64,000 bases of DNA from an uncultured Deferribacteres bacterium (lineage in GTDB: Bacteria; Zhuqueibacterota; JdFR-76; DREG01): the NCBI GenBank assembly GCA_913009825.1, contig CAJVYQ010000002.1:82675-146674 (forward strand), given 5' to 3'. Below are positions 21,201 through 49,337 of this stretch, piece by piece. The notes beneath the pieces are model-generated. The model saw only the letters and a list, made by a program, of their open reading frames with translations. It searched no databases and had not been told where the DNA came from. A program made the translations under genes and the position numbers. Position 1 is the stretch's first letter. Every line of letters starts with the position of its first letter.

Positions 21201-24200
21201 ACTCCGCAAACGGCAGGCGTGGCGTTCACCATTACGGTAACGGCGGAAGATGCCAATAATAATAAAGTAACCGGTTTTAACGGCACTGTTTCTATCGGCG
21301 ATGAGACAGGTTCCATAAGTCCCAAAACCAGCGGCAGTTTCAGCAATGGCGTTTGGTCGGATGATGTTAGCATCACGGAAAGCAAAACAGGCAACACTAT
21401 CACCGTAACAGGCGCCGGGAAAAGCGGTCAATCCAACAGTTTTAATGTGAACCCTGCTTCGCTGGATCATTTCACTATTGCCGCCATTTCCAGTCCTCAG
21501 GTTGCCGGAGCAGCGTTTGGGGTAACCATTACTGCTAAAGATACTTACGAAAATACGCTGACAAATTATACAAATTCAGCCGGTTTGAGCGTTAACACAG
21601 GCGCAGGAACATTCTCGCCAACGACAACTACCGGAGGGTTTACGGCAGGAGGTTGGTCGGGAAATGTTACCGTTACAAAAAAGCAGGCGGATGTTTTGCT
21701 CGTTGTAAAAGACGGCTCCGTCAGCGATACTTCCAATGCATTTAATGTGCGCGCCGCGCAGGTGGCCGGCATTACGGTGCGGGATGCCGCCCTGGGTTCC
21801 GGAAATGATGTCGGCGATCGTTCGTTAACGCTTGACCAAACTCTAATCTTGTATGCAGCGGGTTATGACCAGTATGGTAATTTTTCTCATGACGTGACCG
21901 TAAGCTGGAGCGTAACAGGAAACTTGGATTCTCCCAATCCGTCTACCGGAAACTCAACCGTTTTTGATCCCGCCACGCCCAACACAAGCGGTACCATTGT
22001 GGCGGACAGCGCGACGATTTCCGATGCAACCGGAACCATTACGGTTGGCGCTATCGCATCCATTAAAATACGCGATGCGGCAAACGGAGCGGGAAATGAA
22101 ATAACGACAGCGCAATTGACGGCGGACGATTCATTAACTCTTTACGCCGCCGGGTATGATGCCGGCAACACGTTCATCGGCGATGTACAGGTTGACTGGT
22201 CTTCTACCGGTTTGGTGCCTGTTGTATCTGTTATTTCTGTCTCCGGGGTTGTTTTTTCTCCCATCGAAGCGCCAAAATCGGGCACAATAACCGCTACACA
22301 TGCAACGGCCGGAACTAAAAATGTTACCGTCACTGTTACTCCGGGTGTTCCAACGGGCGCTATCAGTCTTACGGCAGATCCTACGGCGCTGCCCGCGGAC
22401 AACAGCAGCACTTCCGCCATCACTTCCGATGTGATTCACGATGCGGATGGAAACGCTGTTGCTTCAGGGACATTGATTACGGTTTCAATAGATGATACAG
22501 ATTTGGGCACCATCACTTCTCCGGATGCCGGCGCAGGCTATGCCGGAACTCAAATTGCTACGGACGCTTCCGGTAAAATTACGTTTGTCCTTCAAGCCGG
22601 ATCGGTTGGCGGTAAAGCTTCCATTTTTATTTCCAGTGTAACCGGCAGCGCTGCCGGCAATACGGTGGTTCAGATTACAAATTTGCGAATTTTGTCCATT
22701 GAAGCGCCGGATCTGGTCAGCCAGGGACAGACGTCGGTTCCGGTTACCATGACGGTTTACAATCTGGGCGATCAGCCGATAACGGATGTTACGGCCAGTT
22801 TAAGCTTTACGGGACCGGCCTCACAAAATTTAAACGGCGATTATGCCAATATTTCCACAACTATTCCTTCTGTCCCGGCAAATCAGCAGATGTCCATTCT
22901 GTTTAATGTAACGGTTTCCACCGGTGCAACAACAGGTATTCCCGTAACTATCGATGGCGGACTGAGCGGAAAAGTAAACGGTAATCCTGTTTCCAACCAG
23001 GGCGCGGAAACAACGGATAACTGGACGGTGCAGTCACCGGCGAGTTTTAAAATAACAAAAGTAGCTACCGACATAGATAGCGTTACCATCGGTCAGCAAA
23101 ACCTTGCCGTGGAAATGCGGGTGGAGAATACCGGCCAGGCAACGGCGCAGATTACCAACGCTACGCTTCATTTTAAAAAGGGCGCGACCAACGTCAGTTC
23201 ACAATATTCTGTATCGCCGGCGCCGGCAAATCCGACAAGTTTGACAGGTGGTACAGCAGATATTTTTGAATTCGTTGTGGATGTTTCCGCCGGCGCCGAG
23301 TTGGGAACTATCACGCTGGACGGTGAAATCGCCGGTACCGACAATAATTCAAACCGCGTAATTACAGACACCGGCGCAGATACTACAGATAATTGGGAAG
23401 TGATCGCAGCAGGCGTTTTACAGATTACATCGCTCACCACAACCCAGACGACGGTGACGCAGGGTCAAACCACACCCTGGTACATTGATCTGAATGTGAA
23501 AAACAACGGCGGCGCCAATTTCACCCTGGACAGCGCCAGAATCAGCATTTACATCGGCACGGAAGTGACGCAGGAATACACCATCGTGAACCCGGCAAAA
23601 TTTTGGAACAACGGTCTGTTATCCTCCACACTGCCGGCGCATGGCCAGGATAAACTCCGTTTCAAAATTGATGCTACCGGTGTAACAAAAGGATTGGCTA
23701 CAATCCAGGGGCGTTTGTGGGTTAAAGATGAAATCAGCGGTTCACAATTATCCGAACAGACAAACGGAAACTCCGGCAGCGTAACGGTTCAGTCTCCGGC
23801 ACAACTGCAAGTGGTATATGTATTGGCAGAAAAATCCACGTTTACTGCCGGCCAGAACACACTGTGGCGTTTAATTGCCAATGTAAAAAATTCCGGTGAA
23901 AGCGCTATCCGGATCGATACTTCCAAAGCGGTATCGTCCCTGGAATTCAAAATCGGCCAGAATGTGTTAACAGATTTTGAAGTTGAACAACCGGTGGGTA
24001 TCGATCAACAGCAGGGAGCCTTTGTTTTGGCAGGCGGGCAAACCGGATTGCTGACGTTTAATATCGTTCAGACGACGTATTCCACCGGCACATGCCGGAT
24101 AAAAGCGATCATCGGCGGCAGAGAGGTAAATAGCGACCGCTCTCTGAATAGCAGCAATTTAACTTTTGTAACCATCGTGAATTCTTCCACGGTTTATATT

Positions 24201-27200
24201 CAATCGACAATGAACAAAGCCGTAAACGAGCCCAATGTTAATACCGGACAAACTTTTGATATCGACGTGAATGTTTTTAACGGCGGTGGAGAAGCGGTTA
24301 AAAATGTCAGGGTTGCGCTGCAGAGTGACGATGCCTCCACATTTAATACCCCGGTAACTATTTCACGCATAGCGGCGGGAAATGCCGGCGTCGCCTCTTT
24401 CCATGTGATTGTTTCCAGCAATGTCGATTCCGTTGAGACATTTACCGCCGCTATCCTCTCGGCTATATCCGAAAACACCGGACAGCCGGTGGATATCGCA
24501 CCTGCTCAGGATTCCACTGCCACGGCGTTCGTCCGAAAGCCGGGTGGTTTGCAGGTTCTTTCCGTGACCACTTCCCAGGATACGGTAAGCGCCGGACAGA
24601 GGTGGCCGAGAACCTGGGATATTTACGTTGCGGTGAAAGATACCGGAGATGCGGCTCTGGAGTTCAAGTCGGTTAGTAAAGAGAATATTCAGTTTTCGAT
24701 TAGCGGCAATGTGCAAACCGACTATTTAGTCATTCCTCCCACGTCCCTTGGGGGTGAGGATTTTATTTTAGCCGGCGGAGAAATTGATACGTTGATTTAC
24801 ACGGTTCGAACCACCGGCGGTTTGGGCGGTAATGTGACCATTGCAGCCAATGTTTCTGCAGAGGATAAAAACGATCAGAGAACCGTTACCGCATCGGGAA
24901 ACGGGTTTATACGGGTTAACACGGCTGCCGAAGTAAGAATATTCCGTACCGTGATAAGTTCATCCAATCCGGCGGATGTAAACACAAGGCAGATTTTTTA
25001 CATTGCCGCCGAGATTGAAAATGGGGGTTCCGAAGCAGTGGAAAATATGCATCTCAGTCTCTCCACCAACGGTCCGTCCCAAATTATTGATAAAACCAAA
25101 CTGGTGAATTCCATTGCTGTGAACAAAACGGAAACGGTTCTGTTTGCCGTAAAAGCTGATTCTGTGGAGAACCTTGTTGGTGAGACTTTCATTGTTACCA
25201 TTGACAGCGCCAAATCGGCGGTCAGCCATGAACCGGCTCTTGTCCGTGTTCCCGCCGATAATAACGCTGCGGTTAAAATTGAAAAGCCCGCCGAAGCGCG
25301 TTTGGAAATTGAATTGAACGACCGGGACGGTATTTTAACGGCTAACCAATTGTTGGATGTAAAATTGTTTTTGCGTAACGAAGGGACGGCGGCTTTTAAA
25401 GGAACAGGGCAGATTGAGTTGGTTATACCTGAAAATTTTCGCAAAATAATGCCGTCCGATACCTTTTATGTTGCAAGAGACACCGTTTTGATTTCCGCTA
25501 GTAATCCTGCCCAATGGCAATTTCTGGCGCCCGATTCTTCCCAGGGACCGGATACGTTATTTGCCAACTGGATTATGTCTCCCCTGGATGAAAACACAAA
25601 CGCCGCCGCAGATATTTTTGCGCCGGCAGATACGATGGAATTAACCACTATAGGTAAAAATGAGATTATCGGATCACTGGCAATTGTATCTCCGGATGGC
25701 GCAACAGATAATGTCGTTTCCACGGAACAGGAATTCGTCCTGCGCCTGACCGCAACAACATCGCAGAATTTGCAGGATGTGACCGCCACGCTTATTCTGC
25801 CCGCTAATTATTCCACCGTTTCAAATTTGGTGCAAAAGGTACCGAATGACACTTTATTATGGACAATCAGAGCTCCGGAAATAAAGGATCAGACGGAGAA
25901 AAATATCATCGTAAAATTACAGGCGAAAGATGATAACAATTCCGTTTTTAACGGCGATCCGGACACGCTGAAAATTAAAACGGTCAGCCGGGCAAATTTG
26001 AATATGAGCGCCGGAATTTCGCAGCCACCCGGCGCCCGGAACGGAGTTTTATCACGCGGACAACAATTTACCATACGGGCGATTATTTCTAACCTGGGGC
26101 AGGCGGATGTCACCGGTTCGGCAGAAATCAGTTTGGATTTGGGGGCGACGGGTGTAACCGTCGCTGAACCGCTAACCGGAACGGTGCATTTTCAACCCGG
26201 CGCCGCTACGTCTGATCCCGTTGACTGGAGTGCAACGGCGCCCAACGAACTGACTTCATCGGCATTTATCACGGTTCGAATGGAAACAACCCCCAACGAT
26301 GAAAATACAAATCGAACCGCGTTTTATTCGGTGGATGTAATTCAGTTTGAAGTATCCACTATCGAAGCGGCGCAACTTTCCAATAAACTTGAAATTACCG
26401 ATCCGGCCGGTGCGCTGAATGGGGTTTTATCCACGGAGCAGAATTTTACGCTGAAAGCAACCATTCAATCGCAAAACAGCACAAACGTTCGTGCCGAACT
26501 GATTTTGCCTACAGGCGCCAATTTTTTCACCGAAAATGCGGTAAAGACGGCCAACACGGGAACAGATGTTGTTTCGTGGATTGTAAAAGCGCCGGCGACT
26601 ACGGTTCAAAATGCCAAAATATATGTCGTCACCCGGGCTGTGGATGAAAACAGCAATAAACCCATTGAAAGCGACCGGGACTCCATACTTGTAACCGTGC
26701 AGAAAAAAGCAATGCTGGAATTAACGGCCGGCACGCCAAAATCTATTCTTTCTGTCGGCGAAGAATTTGAAATTAGCGCCGTAGTTAATAATTCAGGAGA
26801 AGCGGCTCTTTTAGATGAAGCGGAATTGAGAATTAATTTACCGGCTGGATTTACTACCGCGGCTGATACAATTAAGGAAACTGCGCAACTTACCACTTCC
26901 TGGATTGTGAAAGCGCCATCCGTGCCAAGCAGTGTGCCGCAAAATATCCGGATATCTATCCAACGTACGCCTCTGGATCAGAATACAAATAATTTTGCTA
27001 CGGTGAACATTTCAATCAGTACCGTTGTTGTGCGGGTGGAAGCCAAGCAAATGGAATTTCTAAAACTAACTTCGTTTACTCAATCCTCAATTGCTGAAGG
27101 TGATAAAAATGTACCGTTGTTGGGTTTTCAGCTCAAAAACAGAGGTAGCCGGGGCTCTAACCCAATCCATTTGCGGGGAATAAAAGTTTATATTTATGAT

Positions 27201-27869
27201 AATGACGGCAAGCTGATTTCTCCGCAATCGATGTTTTCCGGTTTAACAGTGCGTAATTTTACAGATACTACCATTGTTTACGGTCATGTAACCAATCTTC
27301 CTGCAGAAAACCCGGTGAGCATCCCGTTCACGAATATCCTAATTCTGACTGCTGGCGCGCCTTATTCTCTTATCGGTATTTACGGGGATGTGTTGCCTGC
27401 TGCGGCAAAGGATATATTCTTTGTAACCGTGGAGAACAATTCTGATGTGGATGCGGTAGACGGCGTAACCAAACAGAGTGTAACCCTGGTTGATGAACGG
27501 GGAATTTCCATCACCAATTTGGATATAAGCTCTACTAAAGCGGTTATTTTGGCTGCTGATTTCAACACCACGTTCAGAAATTTTCCCAATCCATTCGGAA
27601 AGCAGGATCGTCCGACGACAAGTTTTGTTTATTTTTTAGTAAATGATTCGGATGGCGAGCTGCGATTGTTTACTCTGACCGGCGATCTTGTTTGGTTGTA
27701 TAAATTTTCATCATCCGATCCGGCCGGACAACGGGGCATTCATTCGGCAGATATTGTATGGGATGGTAAAAACGGGAATGGTTTCACTGTTTTAAACGGT
27801 GTTTATGTCGCCGTTTTAACAACCGCAGACGGAAGACGTACCGTAACAAAAGTTGCTTTTGTAAAATAG
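18300..27869 (+). CDS. giant secreted repeat-containing surface protein (3189 aa) with C-terminal T9SS-type sorting domain
   Basis: It has a signal peptide. There are tandem ~100-aa Ig-like repeats (F[NT]V..A.L.HFT.A.[VI]SSPQTAG..F.VT[IV]TA.D.Y.NTVT). A middle region has ~170-aa repeats with the TTDNW motif. A C-terminal region has ~270-aa repeats with [DE]ENTN and SWIVKAP motifs. The last ~95 aa (NFPNPF...GVYVAVL...) match the Por secretion C-terminal domain pattern. Confidence 0.85.
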   Translation: MFNLKKFFTSFFTYFFIIGFSTVFAQIEAINTEAGISTNYKFTFGITGTLDPSATFSITFPSGFDASNVQIVGSTTMTGGFTNIAATAGTVTFIRDGTGNNASGGGHIITIGIVENPSTSKITGNISFSGANSGGAGLGSASLSNTVTIAPSSLNYFTMTSVPGSATAGATFDGVLVTAKDVYNNDKTDYAGTVSWSSTDGSATLPTTGLTFSGESKTFNGFVLKTSGSQTITVTDGSISKESSVITVSAAAPSSFNISNPGTQVAGSGFSLSITGAVDAYGNSVSGTATVAFSDAGAHASPNATSPTITNITVTNGSGSATQVLVNAESGVQLQATLGSVSQSTNAFTVNATTLNGYTLSNPGSQTAGTGFDLTITDAIDIYGNGVDGTATVELLPSGSHNSPDGFSPSVQNIAVTAASPGTGSAVQILYKSENNVQLRTSMGGIQQTGAAFNVGVSSLSYVKVLTDASGNTGEVGAQTLGAGNTLTVHAGGFDGYGNYNVDEPVSWSVSGGIGNMSPASGTSSTLTASTEGSGSIKADHAAATDGVSGTITVTKGTLSYVRVVEGLSGAGSALGSRTLTAGQSLTVHAAGYDATDNYLGDYTVNWTVSNGIGSFSSGSGASTVFTAETVGNGVITAHHSTATDGASGTITVNYGTFSTFQVAADLNGTNIGNKTAGQSFNISVVAKDAYNNTVQNFTNTANLTDLTGDLNTTTGNFVEGAWTGQIIIMKSKTGNTITASNSGKSGTSNAFNVAPASLEHFTFATVSSPQTAGTDFSVTITAKDVYENTVTSHMAAANLSVNTGAGTFSPTTTGGFTAGVWTGNMTVTKAQTDVKITVSYSSKSGQSNLFNVGSGALYHFSIAPVSSPQTAGAPFSITVTAQDANDNTVTGFSGTVNISNKTASISPVISGNFSNGIWIGNVTITQVKTSDRITVLRTGGGTETGVSNTFDVTTTDIDHFTVATISTPQTAGVAFTITVTAEDANNNKVTGFNGTVSIGDETGSISPKTSGSFSNGVWSDDVSITESKTGNTITVTGAGKSGQSNSFNVNPASLDHFTIAAISSPQVAGAAFGVTITAKDTYENTLTNYTNSAGLSVNTGAGTFSPTTTTGGFTAGGWSGNVTVTKKQADVLLVVKDGSVSDTSNAFNVRAAQVAGITVRDAALGSGNDVGDRSLTLDQTLILYAAGYDQYGNFSHDVTVSWSVTGNLDSPNPSTGNSTVFDPATPNTSGTIVADSATISDATGTITVGAIASIKIRDAANGAGNEITTAQLTADDSLTLYAAGYDAGNTFIGDVQVDWSSTGLVPVVSVISVSGVVFSPIEAPKSGTITATHATAGTKNVTVTVTPGVPTGAISLTADPTALPADNSSTSAITSDVIHDADGNAVASGTLITVSIDDTDLGTITSPDAGAGYAGTQIATDASGKITFVLQAGSVGGKASIFISSVTGSAAGNTVVQITNLRILSIEAPDLVSQGQTSVPVTMTVYNLGDQPITDVTASLSFTGPASQNLNGDYANISTTIPSVPANQQMSILFNVTVSTGATTGIPVTIDGGLSGKVNGNPVSNQGAETTDNWTVQSPASFKITKVATDIDSVTIGQQNLAVEMRVENTGQATAQITNATLHFKKGATNVSSQYSVSPAPANPTSLTGGTADIFEFVVDVSAGAELGTITLDGEIAGTDNNSNRVITDTGADTTDNWEVIAAGVLQITSLTTTQTTVTQGQTTPWYIDLNVKNNGGANFTLDSARISIYIGTEVTQEYTIVNPAKFWNNGLLSSTLPAHGQDKLRFKIDATGVTKGLATIQGRLWVKDEISGSQLSEQTNGNSGSVTVQSPAQLQVVYVLAEKSTFTAGQNTLWRLIANVKNSGESAIRIDTSKAVSSLEFKIGQNVLTDFEVEQPVGIDQQQGAFVLAGGQTGLLTFNIVQTTYSTGTCRIKAIIGGREVNSDRSLNSSNLTFVTIVNSSTVYIQSTMNKAVNEPNVNTGQTFDIDVNVFNGGGEAVKNVRVALQSDDASTFNTPVTISRIAAGNAGVASFHVIVSSNVDSVETFTAAILSAISENTGQPVDIAPAQDSTATAFVRKPGGLQVLSVTTSQDTVSAGQRWPRTWDIYVAVKDTGDAALEFKSVSKENIQFSISGNVQTDYLVIPPTSLGGEDFILAGGEIDTLIYTVRTTGGLGGNVTIAANVSAEDKNDQRTVTASGNGFIRVNTAAEVRIFRTVISSSNPADVNTRQIFYIAAEIENGGSEAVENMHLSLSTNGPSQIIDKTKLVNSIAVNKTETVLFAVKADSVENLVGETFIVTIDSAKSAVSHEPALVRVPADNNAAVKIEKPAEARLEIELNDRDGILTANQLLDVKLFLRNEGTAAFKGTGQIELVIPENFRKIMPSDTFYVARDTVLISASNPAQWQFLAPDSSQGPDTLFANWIMSPLDENTNAAADIFAPADTMELTTIGKNEIIGSLAIVSPDGATDNVVSTEQEFVLRLTATTSQNLQDVTATLILPANYSTVSNLVQKVPNDTLLWTIRAPEIKDQTEKNIIVKLQAKDDNNSVFNGDPDTLKIKTVSRANLNMSAGISQPPGARNGVLSRGQQFTIRAIISNLGQADVTGSAEISLDLGATGVTVAEPLTGTVHFQPGAATSDPVDWSATAPNELTSSAFITVRMETTPNDENTNRTAFYSVDVIQFEVSTIEAAQLSNKLEITDPAGALNGVLSTEQNFTLKATIQSQNSTNVRAELILPTGANFFTENAVKTANTGTDVVSWIVKAPATTVQNAKIYVVTRAVDENSNKPIESDRDSILVTVQKKAMLELTAGTPKSILSVGEEFEISAVVNNSGEAALLDEAELRINLPAGFTTAADTIKETAQLTTSWIVKAPSVPSSVPQNIRISIQRTPLDQNTNNFATVNISISTVVVRVEAKQMEFLKLTSFTQSSIAEGDKNVPLLGFQLKNRGSRGSNPIHLRGIKVYIYDNDGKLISPQSMFSGLTVRNFTDTTIVYGHVTNLPAENPVSIPFTNILILTAGAPYSLIGIYGDVLPAAAKDIFFVTVENNSDVDAVDGVTKQSVTLVDERGISITNLDISSTKAVILAADFNTTFRNFPNPFGKQDRPTTSFVYFLVNDSDGELRLFTLTGDLVWLYKFSSSDPAGQRGIHSADIVWDGKNGNGFTVLNGVYVAVLTTADGRRTVTKVAFVK
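20270..21740 (+). repeat. five tandem ~290-bp intragenic repeats encoding Ig-like domains of the giant protein
   Basis: The repeated protein units start NAFNVAPASLEHFTFATVSSPQTAG, NLFNVGSGALYHFSIAPVSSPQTAG, NTFDVTTTDIDHFTVATISTPQTAG and NSFNVNPASLDHFTIAAISSPQVAG. Similarity is also visible at the nucleotide level. Confidence 0.7.
27578..27866 (+). other. T9SS (Por secretion) C-terminal sorting domain of the giant protein
   Basis: NFPNPFGKQDRPTTSFVYFLVNDSDGELRLFTLTGDLVWLYKFSS..GQRGIHSADIVWDGKNGNGFTVLNGVYVAVLTTADGRRTVTKVAFVK fits the CTD pattern NYPNPFN..T.I.Y.L......L.IYD..G.LV......G.....WDG.N..G..V.SGVY.Y.L......K. Confidence 0.7.
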
Positions 27870-36121: not shown

Positions 36122-37231
36122 ATGACTGAACATGAAGAAAGATATCTTCATTCTCTTCTACGTCTGATCTCAGTTCAAGGGATGGGTTCATTTCGCATCC
36201 GGCGGCTAATTAGTTACTTCAAAACAGCTTCCGAGGTTTTATCTGCGGACCTGCTGTCCCTCACCGGAATTGATGGCATAGATAAAATTCTGGCGAAAAA
36301 TATTCGTGCGGGTGGGAAACCGGATTTTGCCGGTCGGCAACTGCAAGCCTGTCGAAAGCATAACATTCAGATCATTACATATTATGACGAGCGGTATCCG
36401 TCCGCATTAAAAGAAACTCCGGACCCTCCCATCCTGCTTTTTATGAAAGGGGCGTTCCAGGACAGAGACGTGATTTCAATTGGCGTTGTGGGCACCCGTA
36501 TTCCCTCTCAGTATGGAAAGCGAGTTGCGGAATTATTGAGCAAAGATTTAATCCAAAACGGATTCACTATTGTCAGCGGACTGGCCAGGGGGATTGACAC
36601 CATCGCCCATCAAACCTGTGTAAAATTGGGTGCGAGAACGATTGCCGTCATGGGAAGCGGATTGGATATCATCTACCCGACTGAAAATAAAAAACTGTCG
36701 GATTTGATTATAGAAAATGGTGCCCTGCTTAGTGAACTTCCCTGTGGCAGCCTGCCCGATGCAGTTAATTTTCCCAAACGAAATCGGATCATCAGTGGAC
36801 TTTCTCTGGGGGTTCTGATTGTAGAAGCGGGTGAAAAAAGCGGCGCACTCATCACAGCAACTTCGGCATTGAATCAAAACCGGGAAGTATTTGCTATTCC
36901 CGGCAGCATTTTTAGCACAAAAAGCAGCGGCACGAACCGGTTGATAAAGGAAGGAGCAAAATTAGTGCAATCGGTGGATGACATTTTGGAGGAATTACAG
37001 CACCGGGTTCGTTCATTCTCCTTTGAAAAGTCCGATTTCAAAGCGTTGCCCATCGACCTGTCCGATAAAGAGAAAAAATTAATGAGTATATTTTCCGATG
37101 ATCCAATCCATATCGATATGATCGCTCAAAAAACCGGGTTTTCAACTGCGGAAACGTTGTCTGTTTTATTGACATTGGAATTAAAAGATGTAATCAAACA
37201 ATTCTCAGGTAAAATGTTTGTGCGGATTTGA
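36122..37231 (+). CDS. dprA: DNA processing protein DprA (Smf)
   Basis: The Rossmann-like DprA core is present (GVVGTRIPSQYGKRVAELLSKDLIQNGFTIVSGLARGIDTIAHQ...GSGLDIIYPTEN). A C-terminal winged-helix region follows. Confidence 0.85.
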   Translation: MTEHEERYLHSLLRLISVQGMGSFRIRRLISYFKTASEVLSADLLSLTGIDGIDKILAKNIRAGGKPDFAGRQLQACRKHNIQIITYYDERYPSALKETPDPPILLFMKGAFQDRDVISIGVVGTRIPSQYGKRVAELLSKDLIQNGFTIVSGLARGIDTIAHQTCVKLGARTIAVMGSGLDIIYPTENKKLSDLIIENGALLSELPCGSLPDAVNFPKRNRIISGLSLGVLIVEAGEKSGALITATSALNQNREVFAIPGSIFSTKSSGTNRLIKEGAKLVQSVDDILEELQHRVRSFSFEKSDFKALPIDLSDKEKKLMSIFSDDPIHIDMIAQKTGFSTAETLSVLLTLELKDVIKQFSGKMFVRI

Positions 37232-37659
37232 CCCCGGCGGCCTTTTTCTGAATTGTTGCACAGATTAACCCGGCATCTCAAAACTATTCACCCGAGGAAA
37301 AAACATAAGAATATAATTAGTGTCTGTCCGAAAATTCCCTTTTTCTGTCATTCCCGCGAAAACCGGAATCCATAACCTCTTGTATTCTTTAGATTTCTGC
37401 CTTCGCAGGAATGACGTTTTTTACTATTTTCATGGTTTTCGGACAGACTCTAATTAATCGAAAAATTTTTAACAATAAAAAGCAGGAAATTCTGTACTCC
37501 AATTAGTTTTTCAGGTTGAAGTTTTTACTAATTTGCGTTAAAGGGATAAAAATTTCAACTTTTATGTTGAAATTCGAGATGAATAATATTACCTTTATAT
37601 TTGCTGTTCCGATGCTTTAATGAGAGGAAAAAAGAGCGTTTACTGAGTATAACCATTTT

Positions 37660-37746
37660 GGAGAGGTGCGAGAGTGGTTGAATCGGGCGGTCTCGAAAAC
37701 CGTTGTCCCTTTTCCGGGACCGTGGGTTCGAATCCCACCCTCTCCG
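37660..37746 (+). tRNA. tRNA-Ser (anticodon CGA)
   Basis: The 7-bp acceptor stem GGAGAGG/CCTCTCC pairs, with discriminator G. The anticodon loop is CTCGAAA. A long variable arm and the T-loop GGTTCGAATCC are present. No CCA is encoded. Confidence 0.75.
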
Positions 37747-37791
37747 CGCGAAATGAATGAGAAAATTTCAACACATGTTTTTTGAAATTTT

Positions 37792-37874
37792 GGAGGGCTA
37801 GTCCTAATTGGTAAGGCGGCGGTCTTGAAAATCGCTGGGTTTTCCCCTTGGGGGTTCGAGTCCCTCGCCCTCCG
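37792..37874 (+). tRNA. tRNA-Ser (anticodon TGA)
   Basis: The acceptor stem GGAGGGC/GCCCTCC pairs, with discriminator G. The anticodon stem-loop is GCGGT-CTTGAAA-ATCGC. A long variable arm and the T-arm GGTTCGAGTCC are present. The D-arm pairing is imperfect. Confidence 0.6.
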
Positions 37875-37876
37875 CG

Positions 37877-38113
37877 ATGTATTACGTTTATATTTTACAA
37901 AGTCAGAAAGATGGTAAACTGTATACCGGCTTTACTGGTGATTTACAGAAACGAATAAAATCTCATAATAGCGGAAAAGTTTGATCCACAAAAGGTAGGA
38001 GACCTTTCATTCTTCTATCTTATGAGGAGTATGAAGATAAAACGGAAGCCCTAAAAAGAGAGTTGTTTTTGAAAAGTGGTCCAGGGCGAAAGTTTTTGAA
38101 GGGAATTCTTTGA
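37877..38113 (+). pseudogene. GIY-YIG (YhbQ/UPF0213-like) nuclease-family gene interrupted by an in-frame TGA
   Basis: The ATG is 3 nt after the tRNA-Ser(TGA) end. MYYVYILQSQKDGKLYTGFTGDLQKRIKSHNSGKV is followed by TGA at 37982-37984. The same frame continues STKGRRPFILLSYEEYEDKTEALKRELFLKSGPGRKFLKGIL. Together these match the full-length GIY-YIG family pattern. Confidence 0.6.
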
Positions 38114-38159
38114 TAAAGGATACAGGGCTTGTCAGCCGAAGGCTGATCCGCCTTGCGGA

Positions 38160-38231
38160 AAAATCGCTGGGTTTTCCCCTTGGAGGTTCCCTGCTTGCGC
38201 GGGCAAGGAGTCCCTCGCCCTCCGCGATGTA
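38160..38231 (+). repeat. partial direct repeat of the 3' half of tRNA-Ser(TGA) (att-like scar)
   Basis: aaaatcgctgggttttccccttgg..agtccctcgccctccgcgatgta repeats 37828-37881. A 20-nt hairpin insertion (ccctgcttgcgcgggcaagg) replaces the T-loop. Together with the original it flanks the GIY-YIG ORF. Confidence 0.6.
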
Positions 38232-38242
38232 GCAACAAGTTT

Positions 38243-38329
38243 GGAGAGGTGGCCGAGCGGCTGAAGGCAGCTGCCTGCTAAGCAGTTGTAGGTGCAAGTC
38301 TACCGTGGGTTCGAATCCCACCCTCTCCG
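38243..38329 (+). tRNA. tRNA-Ser (anticodon GCT)
   Basis: GGAGAGGTGGCCGAGCGGCTGAAGGC is a classic Ser D-arm. The anticodon stem-loop is CTGC-CTGCTAA-GCAG. A long variable arm and GGTTCGAATCC are present. The acceptor stem pairs with CCTCTCC plus G. Confidence 0.8.
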
Positions 38330-38347
38330 CATATTTTACTAAATCGG

Positions 38348-38701
38348 GTGATTACAATGTATGAACTTAAAAAATTGGACGTTTGGTCCGTTGTAAAAGT
38401 TACATTTATTCTGTCTTTTTTTGTTGGTCTTGTTTTAGGTGTCTTTTATTTTTTTATTATGTTCTTTGTTTCTCAATTTACGGGTTCTTTCGGTGGCGGT
38501 GTAGAAAGAGAGGTTTTAAGACTTGGTGGAATTATCGGTTTTTTTGTAATTATCTTCATCGCCATATTTACTTCTGTTTTTTATACAATTATCACGGCTA
38601 TTTTAGCCGGGCTGTATAATTTGGTCTCCGGATGGACCGGCGGAATAAGAGTGGAATTGTCGGAGGAGAAGACGGCGGAAGGCGTAGTGCCGCATGAATG
38701 A
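38348..38701 (+). CDS. small integral membrane protein (3 TM), unknown function
   Basis: 117 aa, strongly hydrophobic. It overlaps the gltX start by 8 nt. Confidence 0.4.
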   Translation: MITMYELKKLDVWSVVKVTFILSFFVGLVLGVFYFFIMFFVSQFTGSFGGGVEREVLRLGGIIGFFVIIFIAIFTSVFYTIITAILAGLYNLVSGWTGGIRVELSEEKTAEGVVPHE

Positions 38702-40115
38702 TTCTATGGAGGCAAAGCAGATTCGGGTACGTTTTGCACCAAGTCCTACTGGATACCTGCATATTGGGGGTGCACGCACGGCTTTGTTCAATTGGTTGTT
38801 TGCTCGAAAAAACAAGGGTAAATTTCTATTACGAATTGAAGATACGGACCAACAGCGTTCAACGGGGGAAATGGTCGATGAGATCCTGCAAAGCTTGCAG
38901 TGGTTGGGTTTGGATTGGGATGAAGATATTTGGTTCCAATCCAGAAGAATGGATGTTTACAGGGAGAAAGCAAAGGAATTGCTTGCCGACCGCAGGGCTT
39001 ATCACTGTTTTTGTGATAAACCGGATGCGGAACCGGAGGATAGGTGGCAGTCAAAATGTACTTGTCATTTGTTGACGGTTAAGGAAAAAGAAGAATTATT
39101 AAACCAGGGAAGGCAACCGGCGATACGTTTTTGGGTGCCCGATGGTACTACTGTATTTAAAGACGTGGTTCACGGTTCTTTGGAATTTAACAACGCAGAA
39201 ATTGATAATTTTATCATTTTACGGGCGGATGGAACACCCACCTATTACTTAGCGGTGGTTGTAGATGATTATGAAATGAGAATAACCCACATTTTGCGGG
39301 GTGATGACCATTTGTCGAACACGCCCAATCAAATTTTACTTTATCATGCATTCGGTTGGGATTTACCTCAATTCGCTCATGTGCCTTTAATTCTGGGTGA
39401 AGATAAAAAGCGTCTTAGCAAACGTTTCGGTGCCACAGCGGTTTCCGAATATTTTAATTCTGGCATTCTGCCGGAATCTTTGGTAAATTACCTGGCGCTT
39501 TTGGGTTGGTATCCCGGTGAAGATCAGGAGATCATGACGCAAGATGAATTGATCGAACTATTTTCATTTGGTGGCATTTCCAGAAAAAGCGCCGTATTCG
39601 ATCAGGCTAAACTGGAATGGGTGAATGGCGAACATATAAAGAACCATTCTTCGGAGGAATTGCTAAAATTTGTCACCGACTATCTTCTCAATGCAAATTT
39701 AATCCGGGAAGAAGAGCTTGAGGAAAAGCACGATTACCTGATTAAAGTTCTTGATCTCTTCAAAATGCGCATGAGAATGGTTGGTGATTTGGCAAAATAT
39801 GGCCGGTATTTTTTTATCGATCCGGAAAGATATGATAAAAATGCATTGAAAAGATACTGGGAAAAAAACACAAAAGATTATCTCACTCAATTTAGGGATA
39901 GGTACGAAAAGTTAGTAAATCACAATGCCGGGGAAATAGAAAAAACACTGAGGGTATTGGCCGGAGAGCTGAGCGTGGCTGCGGCAAAAATTATTCATCC
40001 GGTGCGAATCGTTTTAACCGGATTTGCAGTGAGTCCCGGTTTGTTTGAAATGATGGAAGTGTTGGGAAAAAATGTTTGTTTGCAACGAATAAATAGAGGA
40101 ATAGAAACTATCTGA
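38694..40115 (+). CDS. gltX: glutamate--tRNA ligase
   Basis: RFAPSPTGYLHIGGARTALFNWLFAR...LRIEDTD is the HIGH region. The KLSKR motif (KRLSKRFG) is also present. 473 aa. Confidence 0.95.
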   Translation: MNDSMEAKQIRVRFAPSPTGYLHIGGARTALFNWLFARKNKGKFLLRIEDTDQQRSTGEMVDEILQSLQWLGLDWDEDIWFQSRRMDVYREKAKELLADRRAYHCFCDKPDAEPEDRWQSKCTCHLLTVKEKEELLNQGRQPAIRFWVPDGTTVFKDVVHGSLEFNNAEIDNFIILRADGTPTYYLAVVVDDYEMRITHILRGDDHLSNTPNQILLYHAFGWDLPQFAHVPLILGEDKKRLSKRFGATAVSEYFNSGILPESLVNYLALLGWYPGEDQEIMTQDELIELFSFGGISRKSAVFDQAKLEWVNGEHIKNHSSEELLKFVTDYLLNANLIREEELEEKHDYLIKVLDLFKMRMRMVGDLAKYGRYFFIDPERYDKNALKRYWEKNTKDYLTQFRDRYEKLVNHNAGEIEKTLRVLAGELSVAAAKIIHPVRIVLTGFAVSPGLFEMMEVLGKNVCLQRINRGIETI

Positions 40116-40209: not shown

Positions 40210-40283
40210 GCGCCCGTGGCTCAATTGGATAGAGCATCTGACTTCGGATCAGAGGGTTGGGGGTTCGAATCCTCCCGGGCGCG
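40210..40283 (+). tRNA. tRNA-Arg (anticodon TCG)
   Basis: The acceptor stem GCGCCCG/CGGGCGC pairs, with discriminator G. The D-arm is GCTCAATTGGATAGAGC. The anticodon stem-loop is TCTGA-CTTCGGA-TCAGA. The T-arm GGGTTCGAATCC is present. Confidence 0.8.
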
Positions 40284-40305
40284 CTTAAGAAAAACAAGAG
40301 TTTAG

Positions 40306-40488
40306 AGGCACACGTTCGCTTCTCATTTGCTGCAAAAAGGTGTTTCGCTTTATATCGTCTCAAAGTTATTAGACCACAGTGATATTAAGACCACAGAAAT
40401 TTACGCTCATTTAGCCCCTCAGACTTTTAATGATGTGGTTAGATTATTGAATGATGGGGAGATGAAGTTGGGGGTGAGTAAGACATAA
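40306..40488 (+). pseudogene. tyrosine recombinase/integrase C-terminal remnant (last ~60 codons only)
   Basis: It translates to [48 protein letters not shown]..., the integrase catalytic box II with the nucleophilic Tyr. An in-frame TAG stop immediately precedes it. It directly abuts the tRNA-Arg 3' end. Confidence 0.7.
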
Positions 40489-40589
40489 AGTAACACGTTT
40501 GAATTTTTTCTTGACATATAATTTTTTTCAGATTATTTTAAATTATTCAGGCAACAACTAATAAAACGAATTTTAATTGATGGTTTATC

Positions 40590-41309
40590 TTGCGAAAAAA
40601 ACTTTATTCTGATACAGAAGTTTACCCTAACTCTCCCTTAATTGAAGTTGTATGTGAGTGTAGATTTTCAGGTGATTTAAGTATAGAATGTAATAGGGAT
40701 ACGTACTTTAAGAAAATAAGAAAAGATTATCCTAATATATTAATACCACAGTTAAAAACCGGTTCAGCTTCTGCTTTAGTCCCATATCGGTTTGAAAATA
40801 AGGAGAAAAATTCTGGAATCATGCTATCTATTGATAGATTTTCCTATTATACCAGAAAATATGAAGGACACCAAAAATTTATTAAGGAGTTTTTAAGATT
40901 ATATAATCTATTAATACAAACATTTGATATAAAAATCTTCAACAGGCTGGGATGGAGATATATAAATATTATTCCATATAGCCGGGAAGACGATTTATTG
41001 CCGGTGAATGAATTTTTTAATCTGGAAATGAACATTGCACAAAATAAAAACATCAATTTTGAAAATCTAAGTTTAGTATTTATATCTAAAATTGATGTTG
41101 GAAACATAACGACTAAAGTAGAGTCAATAATAAAAGAAAATGGTGAACAAGAAGCGTTTTTATTGGACATTGATTTTGCTTATACAAAAAATTTAAAATC
41201 TGAAAGTATAGAGAATCTTATAAAAAAAGCACACAAACAGGCAAGAGATTTTTTTGAGAATTCCATAATAGAAAAATATAGACAGTTTCTTAGAGGAGAA
41301 TCTTTATGA
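40590..41309 (+). CDS. hypothetical protein, possibly TIGR04255-like 'sporadically distributed' family (islet gene A)
   Basis: 239 aa with a TTG start. The N-terminus ...YPNSPLIEVVCECRF resembles, from memory, the conserved N-terminal motif of the TIGR04255 family. GC content is ~30%, much lower than its surroundings. Confidence 0.45.
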   Translation: MRKKLYSDTEVYPNSPLIEVVCECRFSGDLSIECNRDTYFKKIRKDYPNILIPQLKTGSASALVPYRFENKEKNSGIMLSIDRFSYYTRKYEGHQKFIKEFLRLYNLLIQTFDIKIFNRLGWRYINIIPYSREDDLLPVNEFFNLEMNIAQNKNINFENLSLVFISKIDVGNITTKVESIIKENGEQEAFLLDIDFAYTKNLKSESIENLIKKAHKQARDFFENSIIEKYRQFLRGESL

Positions 41310-41728
41310 ACGACACCATCGTTCAGGAAACCTATAATATCGTTGAAGAACTAAAAAGTTATCCACCACCATTTAAGATGAACAGATATAATTCTGTAAG
41401 TACAACTTCAGATTTTATTCCTGCTAATTACATGAAGGTAAAAAACATCTTTACTTTACCCAAGTGGGTTTTTAAAAGTTTAGATGTTTGTATAAAATCA
41501 AGAGTACCAATTGAAATTGTTCTAAAACGAGAAACAGAACTATTTACTGCCGAAAATGAAAATTTAAACATTTATGCTTTGGGGACAACCGCCCAGGAAG
41601 CAATTGACGAATTTAATAAGCATATAATCTTTCTGTTTCATCATTATAAAAACGCTGAGAGAGAAAAACTAACCGGCAGAGCAATTGAATTAAAAAATAT
41701 TTTTGAAGAAAAATTCTTTGAAGTGTAA
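41306..41728 (+). CDS. HicB-like (UPF0150/RNase H-like) putative antitoxin (islet gene B)
   Basis: 140 aa. The C-terminal half PIEIVLKRETELFTAENENLNIYALGTTAQEAIDEFNKHI fits the HicB pattern (..V.IE.DE.GGY.A....L.GC.SQG.T.EEA..N..EAI). The start overlaps the gene A stop (ATGA). Confidence 0.4.
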   Translation: MNDTIVQETYNIVEELKSYPPPFKMNRYNSVSTTSDFIPANYMKVKNIFTLPKWVFKSLDVCIKSRVPIEIVLKRETELFTAENENLNIYALGTTAQEAIDEFNKHIIFLFHHYKNAEREKLTGRAIELKNIFEEKFFEV

Positions 41729-41731
41729 TAG

Positions 41732-42025
41732 ATGAATATTAACAGGAGATTGGCTCAAAAAAGCTTATCAAAAAAAGGTTTTCGGAAAGACAAATCAAGA
41801 GACCATGTTTATTACTTCCATGAATACAAAGGAAAAGAATCGGGTATTTTTACTTATGTTTCACATTCTACAAAATTCCGAGATTTAACCAGAGACATAT
41901 TATCTAAAATTAAAAAGGAACTTAGACTTAACACCAATTTGGAAGTATATAATTTTCTTACCTGCCCAATGGATGAAAATGAATATAATCGTATTTTAAT
42001 TGAAAGAGGGATTTTAAAGCTCTAA
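41732..42025 (+). CDS. HicA/YcfA-like putative mRNA-interferase toxin (islet gene C)
   Basis: 97 aa. LSKKGFRKDKSRDHVYYFHEYKGKESGIFTYVSHSTKFRDLTRDILSKIKKEL resembles the HicA pattern (GF......HH.Y.H.......T.P.H....I..G....ILKQAGL). It lies 3 nt after gene B. Confidence 0.35.
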   Translation: MNINRRLAQKSLSKKGFRKDKSRDHVYYFHEYKGKESGIFTYVSHSTKFRDLTRDILSKIKKELRLNTNLEVYNFLTCPMDENEYNRILIERGILKL

Positions 42026-42156
42026 ACATTTCCATCAAAATGTTACCAAAACATTACCAGTTTACAATTCAAACATATAAAGCTCAACAAAAGTAAATCT
42101 AAATAATTCTTTGTTTTTTCAGAAGGTTGCGTTATCTCACAACAGGGTTTTAAATT

Positions 42157-42212
42157 ACTTCGGATCAGAGGAGTGGGAATTCGAGTCCTCCCGGGCGCGT
42201 TTAAGAAAAACA
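42157..42212 (+). repeat. imperfect direct repeat of the tRNA-Arg(TCG) 3' half (attR-like) closing the islet
   Basis: acttcggatcagag-gagtgggaattcgagtcctcccgggcgcgtttaagaaaaaca aligns with acttcggatcagagggttgggggttcgaatcctcccgggcgcgcttaagaaaaaca at 40241-40296, at about 85% identity. Confidence 0.7.
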
Positions 42213-48557: not shown

Positions 48558-48613
48558 GGCGCATTCGTTTAGTGGCTTGGGACGTCCCGTTCAAACGGGA
48601 TAACACGGGTTCG
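48558..48613 (+). pseudogene. tRNA-Glu-like 5' fragment (truncated tRNA pseudogene)
   Basis: GGCGCATTCGTTTAGTGGCTTGGGACG... is near-identical to the 5' half of the downstream tRNA-Glu. The anticodon loop is only 6 nt. There is no complementary T-arm or acceptor 3' strand. Confidence 0.5.
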
Positions 48614-48694
48614 CAAAACATAGCGAATTTTCAATGGATGAAAGGATGCCCGGCAAACAAAACAGATCGATGGACTAAGATTTTGGTTTATAAT

Positions 48695-48767
48695 GGCGCA
48701 TTCGTCTAGTGGCCTAGGACGCCGGCCTCTCACGTCGGTAACACGGGTTCGACTCCCGTATGCGCTA
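48695..48767 (+). tRNA. tRNA-Glu (anticodon CTC)
   Basis: GGCGCATTCGTCTAGTGGCCTAGGAC is a Glu-type D-arm. The anticodon stem-loop is CCGGC-CTCTCAC-GTCGG. The T-arm is ACGGG-TTCGACT-CCCGT. The acceptor stem has a G1-U72 wobble. Confidence 0.7.
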
Positions 48768-48777
48768 CAAATATTTT

Positions 48778-48863: not shown

Positions 48864-49337
48864 ATGATGAATAGTGAAGATCAACATAACAAATGGATGC
48901 GCGAGGCTTTTCGTGAAGCCGTGAAGGCGTATAAAGAAGGTGAGGTTCCTGTAGGCGCTGTTGTTGTGTTGCATAGTCGCATCATAGGCAGGGGACATAA
49001 CAGAGTGGAAGCGTTACAGGATGCCACGGCACATGCGGAAATTCTGGCATTAACGGCGGCATTCAATACTCTGTCATCGTGGCGGTTGGATGATGCCGTG
49101 CTTTATGTCACTCTTGAGCCGTGTGTGATGTGTGCCGGAGCGATCATGAACGCCAGAATCAATCGGATTGTTTTTGGCACGTTTGATTCGAGAGCCGGCG
49201 CCTGCGGGTCACGGTTCAATTTGCCGGAAGATCCCAGGAGTTTATTTAATGTTGATATTACCTCCGGGATTATGGCACTGCAGTGTAGTAAGATATTGCG
49301 ATCGTTTTTTCAATTGAAGAGACAGCAGCAGAATTAA
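48864..49337 (+). CDS. tadA: tRNA-specific adenosine deaminase
   Basis: The deaminase zinc motifs HAEILAL and LYVTLEPCVMCAGAI are present. 157 aa. Confidence 0.9.
   Translation: MMNSEDQHNKWMREAFREAVKAYKEGEVPVGAVVVLHSRIIGRGHNRVEALQDATAHAEILALTAAFNTLSSWRLDDAVLYVTLEPCVMCAGAIMNARINRIVFGTFDSRAGACGSRFNLPEDPRSLFNVDITSGIMALQCSKILRSFFQLKRQQQN

Follow-up and report, generated by a model that had tools for sequence, protein, structure and literature searches.

A minimal GIY-YIG nuclease gene and a hairpin-split tRNA copy inserted in a bacterial serine tRNA cluster: a candidate selfish cassette in decay

Introduction

What has placed a small nuclease gene, followed by a partial and interrupted tRNA copy, between two serine tRNA genes of an uncultured Deferribacteres bacterium? 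The locus lies on a 64-kb stretch of contig CAJVYQ010000002.1 (hereafter the window, meaning the whole stretch of DNA that was analysed), in which three co-oriented serine tRNA genes (CGA, TGA and GCT) form a single cluster and 367 nt are inserted between the second and the third. tRNA genes are the most conserved DNA of any genome and the classic landing sites of integrase-borne islands. An earlier note, made from the sequence alone, had reported at this locus a GIY-YIG open reading frame (ORF) with an in-frame TGA and a repeat of the 3' half of the tRNA, and all three were recovered in place by ARAGORN, Rfam, Pfam and a repeat search. Comparison with related loci identifies the insert as a gain at a site that is empty in a closer relative, and the reading towards which we lean is that of a decaying selfish nuclease cassette, maintained by recombination through tRNA homology.

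Results

The insert consists of an ORF that directly follows tRNA-Ser(TGA) and a partial copy of that same tRNA interrupted by hairpins at two of its loops. The features of the cluster, in window coordinates and with their strand, are as follows.

37660..37747, +, tRNA-Ser(CGA), the first gene of the cluster (ARAGORN; Rfam tRNA, 55 bits)
37792..37875 (or 37874), +, tRNA-Ser(TGA), intact, without encoded CCA, the functional copy (ARAGORN; Rfam tRNA, 43.9 bits)
37877..38113, +, GIY-YIG (Slx1/UPF0213-type) ORF of 78 codons, a pseudogene (Pfam PF01541, E 1.4e-17; PDB 1zg2, E 7.8e-16; alignment)
37982..37984, +, in-frame TGA at codon 36, Arg or Lys in homologues (translation, alignment; also in contigs L081 and L206)
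38123..38131, +, degenerate remnant CAGGGCTTG of tRNA positions ~28-36, the 5' edge of the partial tRNA copy (sequence reading; alignment with L207, L001 and the intact tRNA)
38132..38159, +, tandem double hairpin at tRNA position 36/37 (anticodon loop) of the copy, a module seen throughout the family (homologous modules in L207, L066, L001, L006 and L058)
38132..38146, +, first unit of the double hairpin, TCAGCCGAAGGCTGA, written TCAGCCgaaGGCTGA as a hairpin
38147..38159, +, second unit of the double hairpin, TCCGCCTTGCGGA, written TCCGCcttGCGGA as a hairpin
38160..38189, +, copy of tRNA-Ser(TGA) positions 37-66, comprising the 3' anticodon stem, variable arm and 5' T stem (repeat search, 29/30 identical)
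38190..38207, +, 18-nt hairpin CCTGCTTGCGCGGGCAAG inside the T loop, between TTC and GAGT (repeat search, sequence reading)
38208..38231, +, copy of tRNA positions 67-84 plus 6 nt of flank, GATGTA, equal to the ORF start (repeat search, 24/24 identical)
38243..38330, +, tRNA-Ser(GCT), the right-hand neighbour (ARAGORN; empty-site relative)

The two repeat pairs, which match 37828-37857 to 38160-38189 (29/30) and 37858-37881 to 38208-38231 (24/24), are far above chance expectation, and the GATGTA that follows the partial copy finds its simplest explanation in a crossover point or in what is left of a second tandem unit. The ATG of the ORF (37877) lies 1-2 nt past the end of tRNA-Ser(TGA), so that the immediate adjacency of ORF and tRNA stated in the earlier note stands, with a narrower gap than the 3 nt given there. 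The same note had placed a 20-nt hairpin in lieu of the T loop of the copy; the hairpin is present, with a length of 18 nt, and is inserted into the loop rather than replacing it, while the tandem double hairpin at 38132-38159, directly 5' of the copied segment, had been missed. No further ORF, family match or recombinase, whole or remnant, was found in 37876-38242, and a tblastn search with 23 family members returned no other GIY-YIG copies in the 64-kb window. An Rfam scan of 37000-39000 (E ≤ 1) recovered the three tRNAs together with sub-threshold matches overlapping them or lying elsewhere in the scanned stretch, and the split copy and its hairpins were without a match. Folded as RNA or as DNA, the region after the ORF is no stabler than shuffled sequence (z -1.45 and -1.0), and thermodynamics alone therefore provides no argument for a structured RNA; promoter and terminator scores across 37300-38750 were likewise at shuffle level.

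The earlier note had proposed a comparison with empty sites in relatives, and one is found in L084, whose GltX is 74% identical to that of the window and which is one of the few loci with a relative of the downstream DUF3566 gene. The order there is tRNA-Ser(CGA), tRNA-Ser(TGA), a 21-nt spacer, tRNA-Ser(GCT), DUF3566 and gltX, with neither ORF nor partial tRNA copy between the Ser(TGA) and Ser(GCT) pair. In the more distant L001 (GltX 51-59% identical) a GIY-YIG ORF occupies the identical Ser(TGA)|Ser(GCT) position, its ATG 2 nt past tRNA-Ser(TGA). Next come a tRNA fragment bearing a double hairpin at 36/37, tRNA-Ser(GCT) and gltX. L017 is occupied at the same site. The site is hence polymorphic for gain and loss, being empty in L084 and occupied in the window, L001 and L017, and since it is the closer relative that is empty, the window cassette is an insertion into the tRNA cluster. 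The closest homologue of the window protein (72% identical) is encoded in L207 (contig JBHLRA010000055.1, 1-660), from a metagenome-assembled genome labelled Thorarchaeota, an archaeal label that is doubtful for this bin. On either side the L207 ORF is bordered by tRNA-Ser(TGA) sequence that lacks its 5' part, uninterrupted upstream and split by hairpins downstream, and no intact tRNA was detected in the 3 kb covered, so that either the cassette resides away from a functional tRNA or the 5' half of the tRNA has been lost.

To place the locus in a wider context, one genome per GTDB species was scanned, yielding at least 580 relatives; the family counts given here cover the best 80 loci. These derive from Ignavibacteria/Melioribacteraceae, Bacteroidota, Calditrichota, Zixibacteria, Patescibacteria, Omnitrophota, Elusimicrobia and others. 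Culturable carriers among them are Fulvivirga lutimaris KCTC 42720 (L015) and Melioribacter sp. Ez-97 (L043), and the proteins of L015, L027 and L074 are intact homologues. A tRNA gene lies within 400 nt of the ORF at 73/80 loci, and every one of the 97 tRNAs so placed is on the ORF strand (97/97); the linked types are mostly Ser, followed by Arg, Gly, Cys and Gln. A second, fragmented copy of the same tRNA accompanies the ORF at 66/80 loci by BLAST and at 61/80 by chaining of exact matches, and the split copies are made up of exact collinear pieces parted by inserts of ~15-30 nt, occasionally up to 80 nt. Inserts of at least 10 nt (n=111) fall in the anticodon loop (41), in the D arm (36, a class drawn broadly at ~positions 8-27, with its mode at 21/22-22/23), in the T loop between TTC and GAA (30) and elsewhere (4), so that 107/111 sit at the D, anticodon or T loops, and their junctions entail neither loss nor duplication of tRNA nucleotides.

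The order of the parts varies among loci. Intact tRNA, ORF and 3'-anchored copy follow one another at 22 loci, the window included, and 29 loci present a 5'-anchored copy, the ORF and then the intact tRNA; at 10 loci the copy is on the same side of the ORF as the intact gene. Extra ORF copies or fragments, some of them truncated or stop-riddled, are present at 18/80 loci, and the cassettes are amplified in tandem arrays in L074, L043, L011, L012, L032 and L077, with four identical units at a 300-nt period in L074 and three units in L043. An ATG 1-2 nt after the tRNA, as in the window, is also seen in L001, L027, L052, L056, L074 and L207.

The inserts themselves are perfect or near-perfect mini-hairpins, often arranged as a tandem pair in constant order relative to the ORF strand, in which the second unit takes the form TCCGCCnnnGGCGGA or TCCCnnnGGGA. 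Their stems co-vary (e.g. tgcc/ggca, tggc/gcca, ccac/gtgg) and their loops are often UUCG-, GAA- or GNRA-like. The double-hairpin module of the window recurs at the same position in L207, as TCAGCCggaGGCTGA followed by TCCACCtctaaCGGA, and a module of this type is also present in the Elusimicrobia locus L066. L032 and L079, whose tRNA-Ser(TGA) genes differ at ~25 or more positions in an ungapped comparison and whose ORFs are 61% identical, carry an identical 22-nt double hairpin at an identical position, each within a split copy that matches its own local tRNA; the module is thus better conserved than the ORF or its flanks. The density of GC-rich mini-hairpins is 4.1 per kb in cassette flanks, as compared with 1.2 in non-coding DNA farther away and 1.0 in coding-like DNA. 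Those of the TCC..GGA type, to which the double hairpin of the window belongs, are enriched ~30-fold at distances of up to 500 nt from the ORFs, and unrelated contigs totalling 680 kb contain few of them.

The 20-nt perfect palindrome CCTGCCTGCCGGCAGGCAGG, which splits tRNA-Arg copies in four Bacteroidota loci (L023, L067, L068 and L077), is dispersed in at least 120 metagenome contigs (L086-L205) spanning 29-71% GC, mostly at intergenic positions. Only 13/127 of its sites are near a tRNA or GIY-YIG gene, it is depleted in coding sequence, and short flanking direct repeats are enriched around it (at least 7 nt at 12% of sites vs 2% of controls). It resembles a promiscuous mini-palindromic element, and at least some hairpins may thus be independent mini-elements. 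Its preferential nesting in the centre of existing hairpins, an idea that arose from inspection by eye, was not significant (8% vs 6% of controls).

Hairpin-split tRNA copies without an ORF do exist, an example being present in the window itself at 48558-48626. This second relic is a degenerate 5'-anchored copy of tRNA-Glu(CTC), 68 nt upstream of the intact gene (48695-48768); it retains positions 1-27 (3 mismatches) and then 45-57, with the anticodon arm replaced by the hairpin TCCCGTTCAAACGGGA (48585-48600).

With the stop masked, the ORF product matches the GIY-YIG Pfam model over residues 1-67 with 64.1 bits (cut-off 22.6; E 1.4e-17), in keeping with the family originally proposed for it. 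A profile search against solved structures returned the UPF0213 proteins BH0048 (1zg2, 7.8e-16) and EF2693 (1ywl, 4e-12), followed by eukaryotic SLX1 (~1e-4), which places the protein in the minimal UPF0213/YhbQ-like clade. It has no auxiliary domain, is 78 aa long and shows no invariant Asn after E62, and on these features it is assigned to the standalone minimal Slx1-like clade without a C-terminal Asn; the match to the group-I-intron endonuclease model TIGR01453 is below cut-off (E 0.0037, 17.3 bits vs 56). Residues Y5, Y16, R26, H30 and E62, corresponding to the GIY/YIG Tyr, Arg and Glu set, are all encoded, and these catalytic-type residues are conserved across 23 aligned homologues. Since the TGA at codon 36 comes between the N-terminal motifs and E62, the window ORF is a pseudogene of the family rather than an intact member.

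The tRNA-linked ORFs share the subfamily motif HNxGKV[KR]STK, and the wider family comprises 28,680 cluster representatives at E ≤ 1e-3 and 8,482 at E ≤ 1e-10. A neighbour-joining tree of 81 ORFs, crude given a protein of only 78 aa, groups them in clades by tRNA type (Ser, Cys, Arg, Gln) with host taxa mixed. No relatives were found among the viral contigs of IMG/VR, and phages and plasmids yielded only distant (<50% identical) UPF0213-like relatives, of which one Rhizobium phage copy was inspected and is without adjoining tRNAs. Translated tRNA T arms were sought in the N-terminal extensions of database homologues; the motif occurs in only 6/50 and is not used as evidence. The database proteins P0130-P0132 contain two GIY-YIG domains per called ORF of 157-214 aa, and probably result from tandem cassettes that gene callers ran together or whose separating stop was lost.

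The in-frame TGA is shared by two further contigs, L206 and L081, in the context GTT TGA TCC. L206 is identical to the window over 3120 nt and may stem from the window's own dataset; L081 belongs to a different dataset and departs from the window at 4 of 3332 nt, including one position inside the partial tRNA copy. A one-off assembly or sequencing error, which the earlier note had named as one part of what would refute its interpretation, is thereby set aside. Arg or Lys, encoded by AAA, AGA, CGT, AGG, CGA and other codons, takes the corresponding position in the 23 aligned homologues, and likewise at the homologous loci that allowed the motif to be placed (n=67). Judged from its sequence, the TGA is a genuine nonsense mutation and the ORF a pseudogene, and its inactivation is recent, since the family-invariant residues Y5, S9, Y16, T20, R26, H30, T38, P43, E50, E62 and K66 are all still encoded. 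A recoded TGA in a functional gene, through selenocysteine insertion or read-through, could draw on a frame that is otherwise open for 42 more codons and on a 6-bp hairpin (37991-38007) located 7 nt past the TGA. We regard it as extremely improbable, and the need for read-through raised in the earlier note as unsupported: homologues carry Arg or Lys here and never Cys or Sec, the hairpin is made up of codons for the conserved KGRRPF segment, the Rfam scan of 37000-39000 yielded only tRNA-related matches and no recoding element at this place, and TGA ends 12/45 long ORFs, which bears out its status as a stop in the host genome.

A third contig, L082, breaks within the repeat, beginning at window position 38185. 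L083 and many of the loci L001-L080 likewise match within a few hundred nt of a contig end, which suggests that the cassette repeats break short-read assemblies at tRNA clusters.

The window also contains a tRNA gene with the remains of a conventional integrase-borne insertion, tRNA-Arg(TCG).

40210-42200, degraded integrase islet at tRNA-Arg(TCG), with 1.9 kb of cargo
40327-40488, integrase C-terminal fragment (PF00589 positions 140-171, E 7e-6)
40590-41309, cargo ORF, no family
41306-41728, cargo ORF, weak antitoxin-like match
41732-42025, cargo ORF
~42153-42200, uninterrupted copy of tRNA-Arg(TCG) from the anticodon loop to the 3' end

Discussion

A selfish cassette of the kind we favour for the 367-nt insert would combine a minimal Slx1/UPF0213-type GIY-YIG gene with an incomplete copy of the adjacent tRNA and with mini-hairpin modules that interrupt this copy at its loops. 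Its nuclease would break or nick DNA in or near tRNA genes, much like SegB of phages T4/T6, and the lesion would be repaired by homologous recombination with the conserved tRNA sequence as homology arm. If the crossover fell in the last unbroken segment of the tRNA fragment carried by the element, which in the window would be the 24-nt exact repeat at 38208-38231, one intact essential tRNA would be left, with the ORF and the hairpin-split partial copy on its other side; crossovers elsewhere would place a hairpin in the essential tRNA gene and would be purged. This single scheme could give the 3'-anchored, 5'-anchored and tandem arrangements alike, and recombination between the repeats would delete the cassette and restore the empty site. 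With no CCA encoded in the tRNA gene and an ATG only 1-2 nt further on, maturation of the tRNA 3' end would be expected to free a leaderless mRNA. The hairpins could act by disrupting the target site, by breaking up the homology and so slowing deletion, at the RNA level, or as autonomous mini-elements. The window cassette is at the stage of degeneration, with a nonsense codon in the ORF, a mismatch in the T stem of the copy and a decayed 5' edge, and decay is also evident at other loci of the family as pseudogenes and ORF fragments. The picture of a selfish-looking minimal GIY-YIG cassette inactivated by a nonsense codon, first drawn in the earlier note, thus holds up, given that homologues carry R/K at a position where TGA is one step from AGA/CGA.

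Several points weigh against such a cassette. The predicted protein is a bare nuclease domain, with no DNA-binding domain that would lend sequence specificity to the proposed cleavage, and an intact, presumably cleavable tRNA always adjoins the gene, so that self-cutting would need to be avoided or tolerated, a question that SegB raises as well. The identical site is occupied in genomes with GltX only ~51-59% identical and the protein is well conserved, which may reflect long vertical residence under purifying selection, that is, a host function. No horizontal vehicle is evident, IMG/VR being without relatives and those from phages and plasmids being distant, and the nuclease-cassette model alone leaves the role of the hairpins unexplained.

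A host function would imply a beneficial Slx1-like nuclease residing in tRNA operons, where heavy transcription of the tRNA genes would confront it with structures to resolve, such as stalled forks, R-loops or extruded cloverleaf hairpins; recombination would have left the tRNA duplications and hairpins as by-products, and the window copy would simply have died. Membership in Slx1/UPF0213, the lack of a specificity domain, strongly conserved residues, the filling of the same site in distantly related genomes and a very large wider family (8,482 cluster representatives at E ≤ 1e-10) all fit this view, as does the strict co-orientation (97/97), which implies co-transcription with the tRNAs. We nevertheless consider it unlikely, as the distribution is patchy and the site of the closer relative empty, pseudogenes and fragments are frequent, the arrays of identical units in L074 look like selfish or accordion amplification, and a housekeeping role would not predict that the gene is accompanied by disrupted duplicates of the adjoining tRNA, whatever its type. 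Very little credence can be given to an integrase-type footprint, in which the partial tRNA copy would be an attR, the recombinase lost and the GIY-YIG gene leftover cargo. The succession of intact tRNA, cargo and 3' partial repeat from near the anticodon loop is the classical att order, and anticodon and T loops are reportedly crossover sites of integrases, in work attributed to Williams in 2002. Yet the insert is without a recombinase or remnant, the copy is 5'-anchored and upstream in 29 relatives, tandem arrays recur with a ~300-nt period, the would-be att core is broken by hairpins, and the true degraded integrase islet at tRNA-Arg(TCG) of the same window looks different. Of the integration footprint claimed in the earlier note, insertion into the tRNA cluster is thus retained, as L084 is empty, and its integrase/att sense is not, given the recombinase-free insert and, in relatives, 5'-anchored copies and tandem arrays.

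It is possible, if doubtful, that the hairpins are no part of any cassette and represent independent REP- or MITE-like mini-palindromes colonising dispensable DNA, redundant tRNA copies included. The dispersal of CCTGCCTGCCGGCAGGCAGG over at least 120 metagenome contigs, mostly far from tRNA or GIY-YIG genes and with flanking direct repeats, would agree with this, as would the identical 22-nt double hairpin of L032 and L079 in the midst of diverged tRNAs and ORFs. Against it stand the ~30-fold concentration of TCC..GGA types near the ORFs and their rarity in 680 kb of unrelated contigs, the position of 107/111 inserts at D, anticodon or T loops without target duplication or loss, and the constant order of the double hairpin relative to the ORF strand. 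Conversely, and only as a long shot, hairpins and minimal nuclease might form one undescribed system. In one version, the GIY-YIG protein would mobilise 20-30-nt (double-)hairpin mini-elements into the single-stranded loops of tRNA-gene cloverleaves, as a bacterial counterpart of mitochondrial double-hairpin elements and GC clusters; in the other, hairpin-bounded tRNA fragments, once transcribed, would serve as scaffold-plus-guide RNAs steering the nuclease to tRNA genes, which would account for the tRNA-type-specific lineages of a 78-aa protein.

Among known systems, the best analogue of the putative cassette nuclease is phage SegB, a free-standing GIY-YIG homing endonuclease from the tRNA gene cluster of phages T4/T6 (PMC2330249; PMC13096335). 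The motif at which SegB cleaves tRNA genes, RAWTSGAAC, is the T-loop box in reverse complement. Its cuts have been mapped genome-wide by SITE-seq, it gives rise through recombination to tandem repeats made up of tRNA-Tyr and segB, and its homologues are statistically enriched near tRNAs (PMC13096335). The cassettes resemble it in the presence of a GIY-YIG gene among tRNA genes and, in the relatives, in tandem arrays of tRNA fragment plus ORF with T-loop breakpoints. They differ in that SegB, a protein of ~220 aa with a DNA-binding region and of UvrC/I-TevI lineage, has a C-terminal extension lacking from the minimal 78-aa domain of the window. The window protein is of Slx1/UPF0213 rather than I-TevI/Seg descent (TIGR01453 below cut-off), SegB is phage-borne whereas the cassettes are chromosomal, and the hairpin-split tRNA copies of the cassettes have not been described for SegB. 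Site polymorphism, tRNA association and tandem amplification are traits that the cassettes share with a homing-endonuclease lifestyle; membership in I-TevI/Seg with a DNA-binding extension is not.

Bacterial stand-alone Slx1-like proteins (UPF0213: YhbQ, YazA, BH0048, EF2693) have the same minimal domain and no auxiliary domains. They have been treated as vertically inherited repair-type proteins, without mention of a link to tRNA genes (Dunin-Horkawicz et al. 2006, PMC1564403). Unlike UPF0213 as there described, the window subfamily is tied to tRNA clusters, tRNA duplications and hairpin modules. Tyrosine-integrase islands at tRNA genes share with the cassette the order of intact tRNA, cargo and direct repeat of the tRNA 3' part, as well as anticodon- and T-loop breakpoints, but the cassette is recombinase-free and only ~0.35 kb long, and its relatives show 5'-anchored variants, arrays and interrupted repeats. 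Fungal mitochondrial double-hairpin elements and GC clusters are, as summarised, short GC-rich two-hairpin modules in AT-richer DNA (Paquin et al. 2000, summarised in PMC10085805), identical across diverged hosts, located in intergenic DNA and structural-RNA genes, and presumed mobile (PMC10085805). The cassette hairpins may be likened to them in form, in their two-hairpin build and cross-host identity; their TCC..GGA type is confined to cassette flanks. The mitochondrial elements are not bacterial and are not known to reside specifically in the loops of tRNA duplicates or beside a dedicated nuclease gene.

No account of tRNA-linked minimal GIY-YIG genes with hairpin-split tRNA copies was found in the open-access full-text literature, a scope outside which most subscription journals fall. 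Free-standing GIY-YIG nucleases near tRNA genes are known; what is new is a domain-only Slx1-type enzyme, its chromosomal spread over multiple phyla and the hairpin-split tRNA duplicates. The recurrence of the same layout across many bacterial phyla looks like an undescribed family of selfish elements in tRNA clusters. Beside integrase-borne islands, tRNA genes would then have a second, far smaller occupant: cassettes of ~300 bp with a bare nuclease domain, which keep one intact tRNA and leave a hairpin-split duplicate, spread through the FCB group (Ignavibacteria, Bacteroidota, Calditrichota, Zixibacteria), Patescibacteria, Omnitrophota and other phyla. If recombination at tRNA genes is indeed stimulated by the nuclease, the enzyme would count as a chromosomal analogue of SegB from phages. 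On the same condition it would account for the frequent assembly breaks and the spurious extensions of ORFs at tRNA clusters, would provide a concrete biological context for the large, functionally uncharacterised UPF0213/Slx1-like family, and could offer a minimal enzyme-plus-hairpin system in which the movement of tiny palindromic elements could be studied.

Two further features of the window were recorded. A tRNA-adenosine-deaminase-like gene (cytidine/deoxycytidylate deaminase family, E 8e-31) lies at 48864-49337, 12 nt past tRNA-Arg(ACG), presumably the substrate tRNA of TadA, and a very large ORF of 3189 aa occupies 18300-27869 (+).

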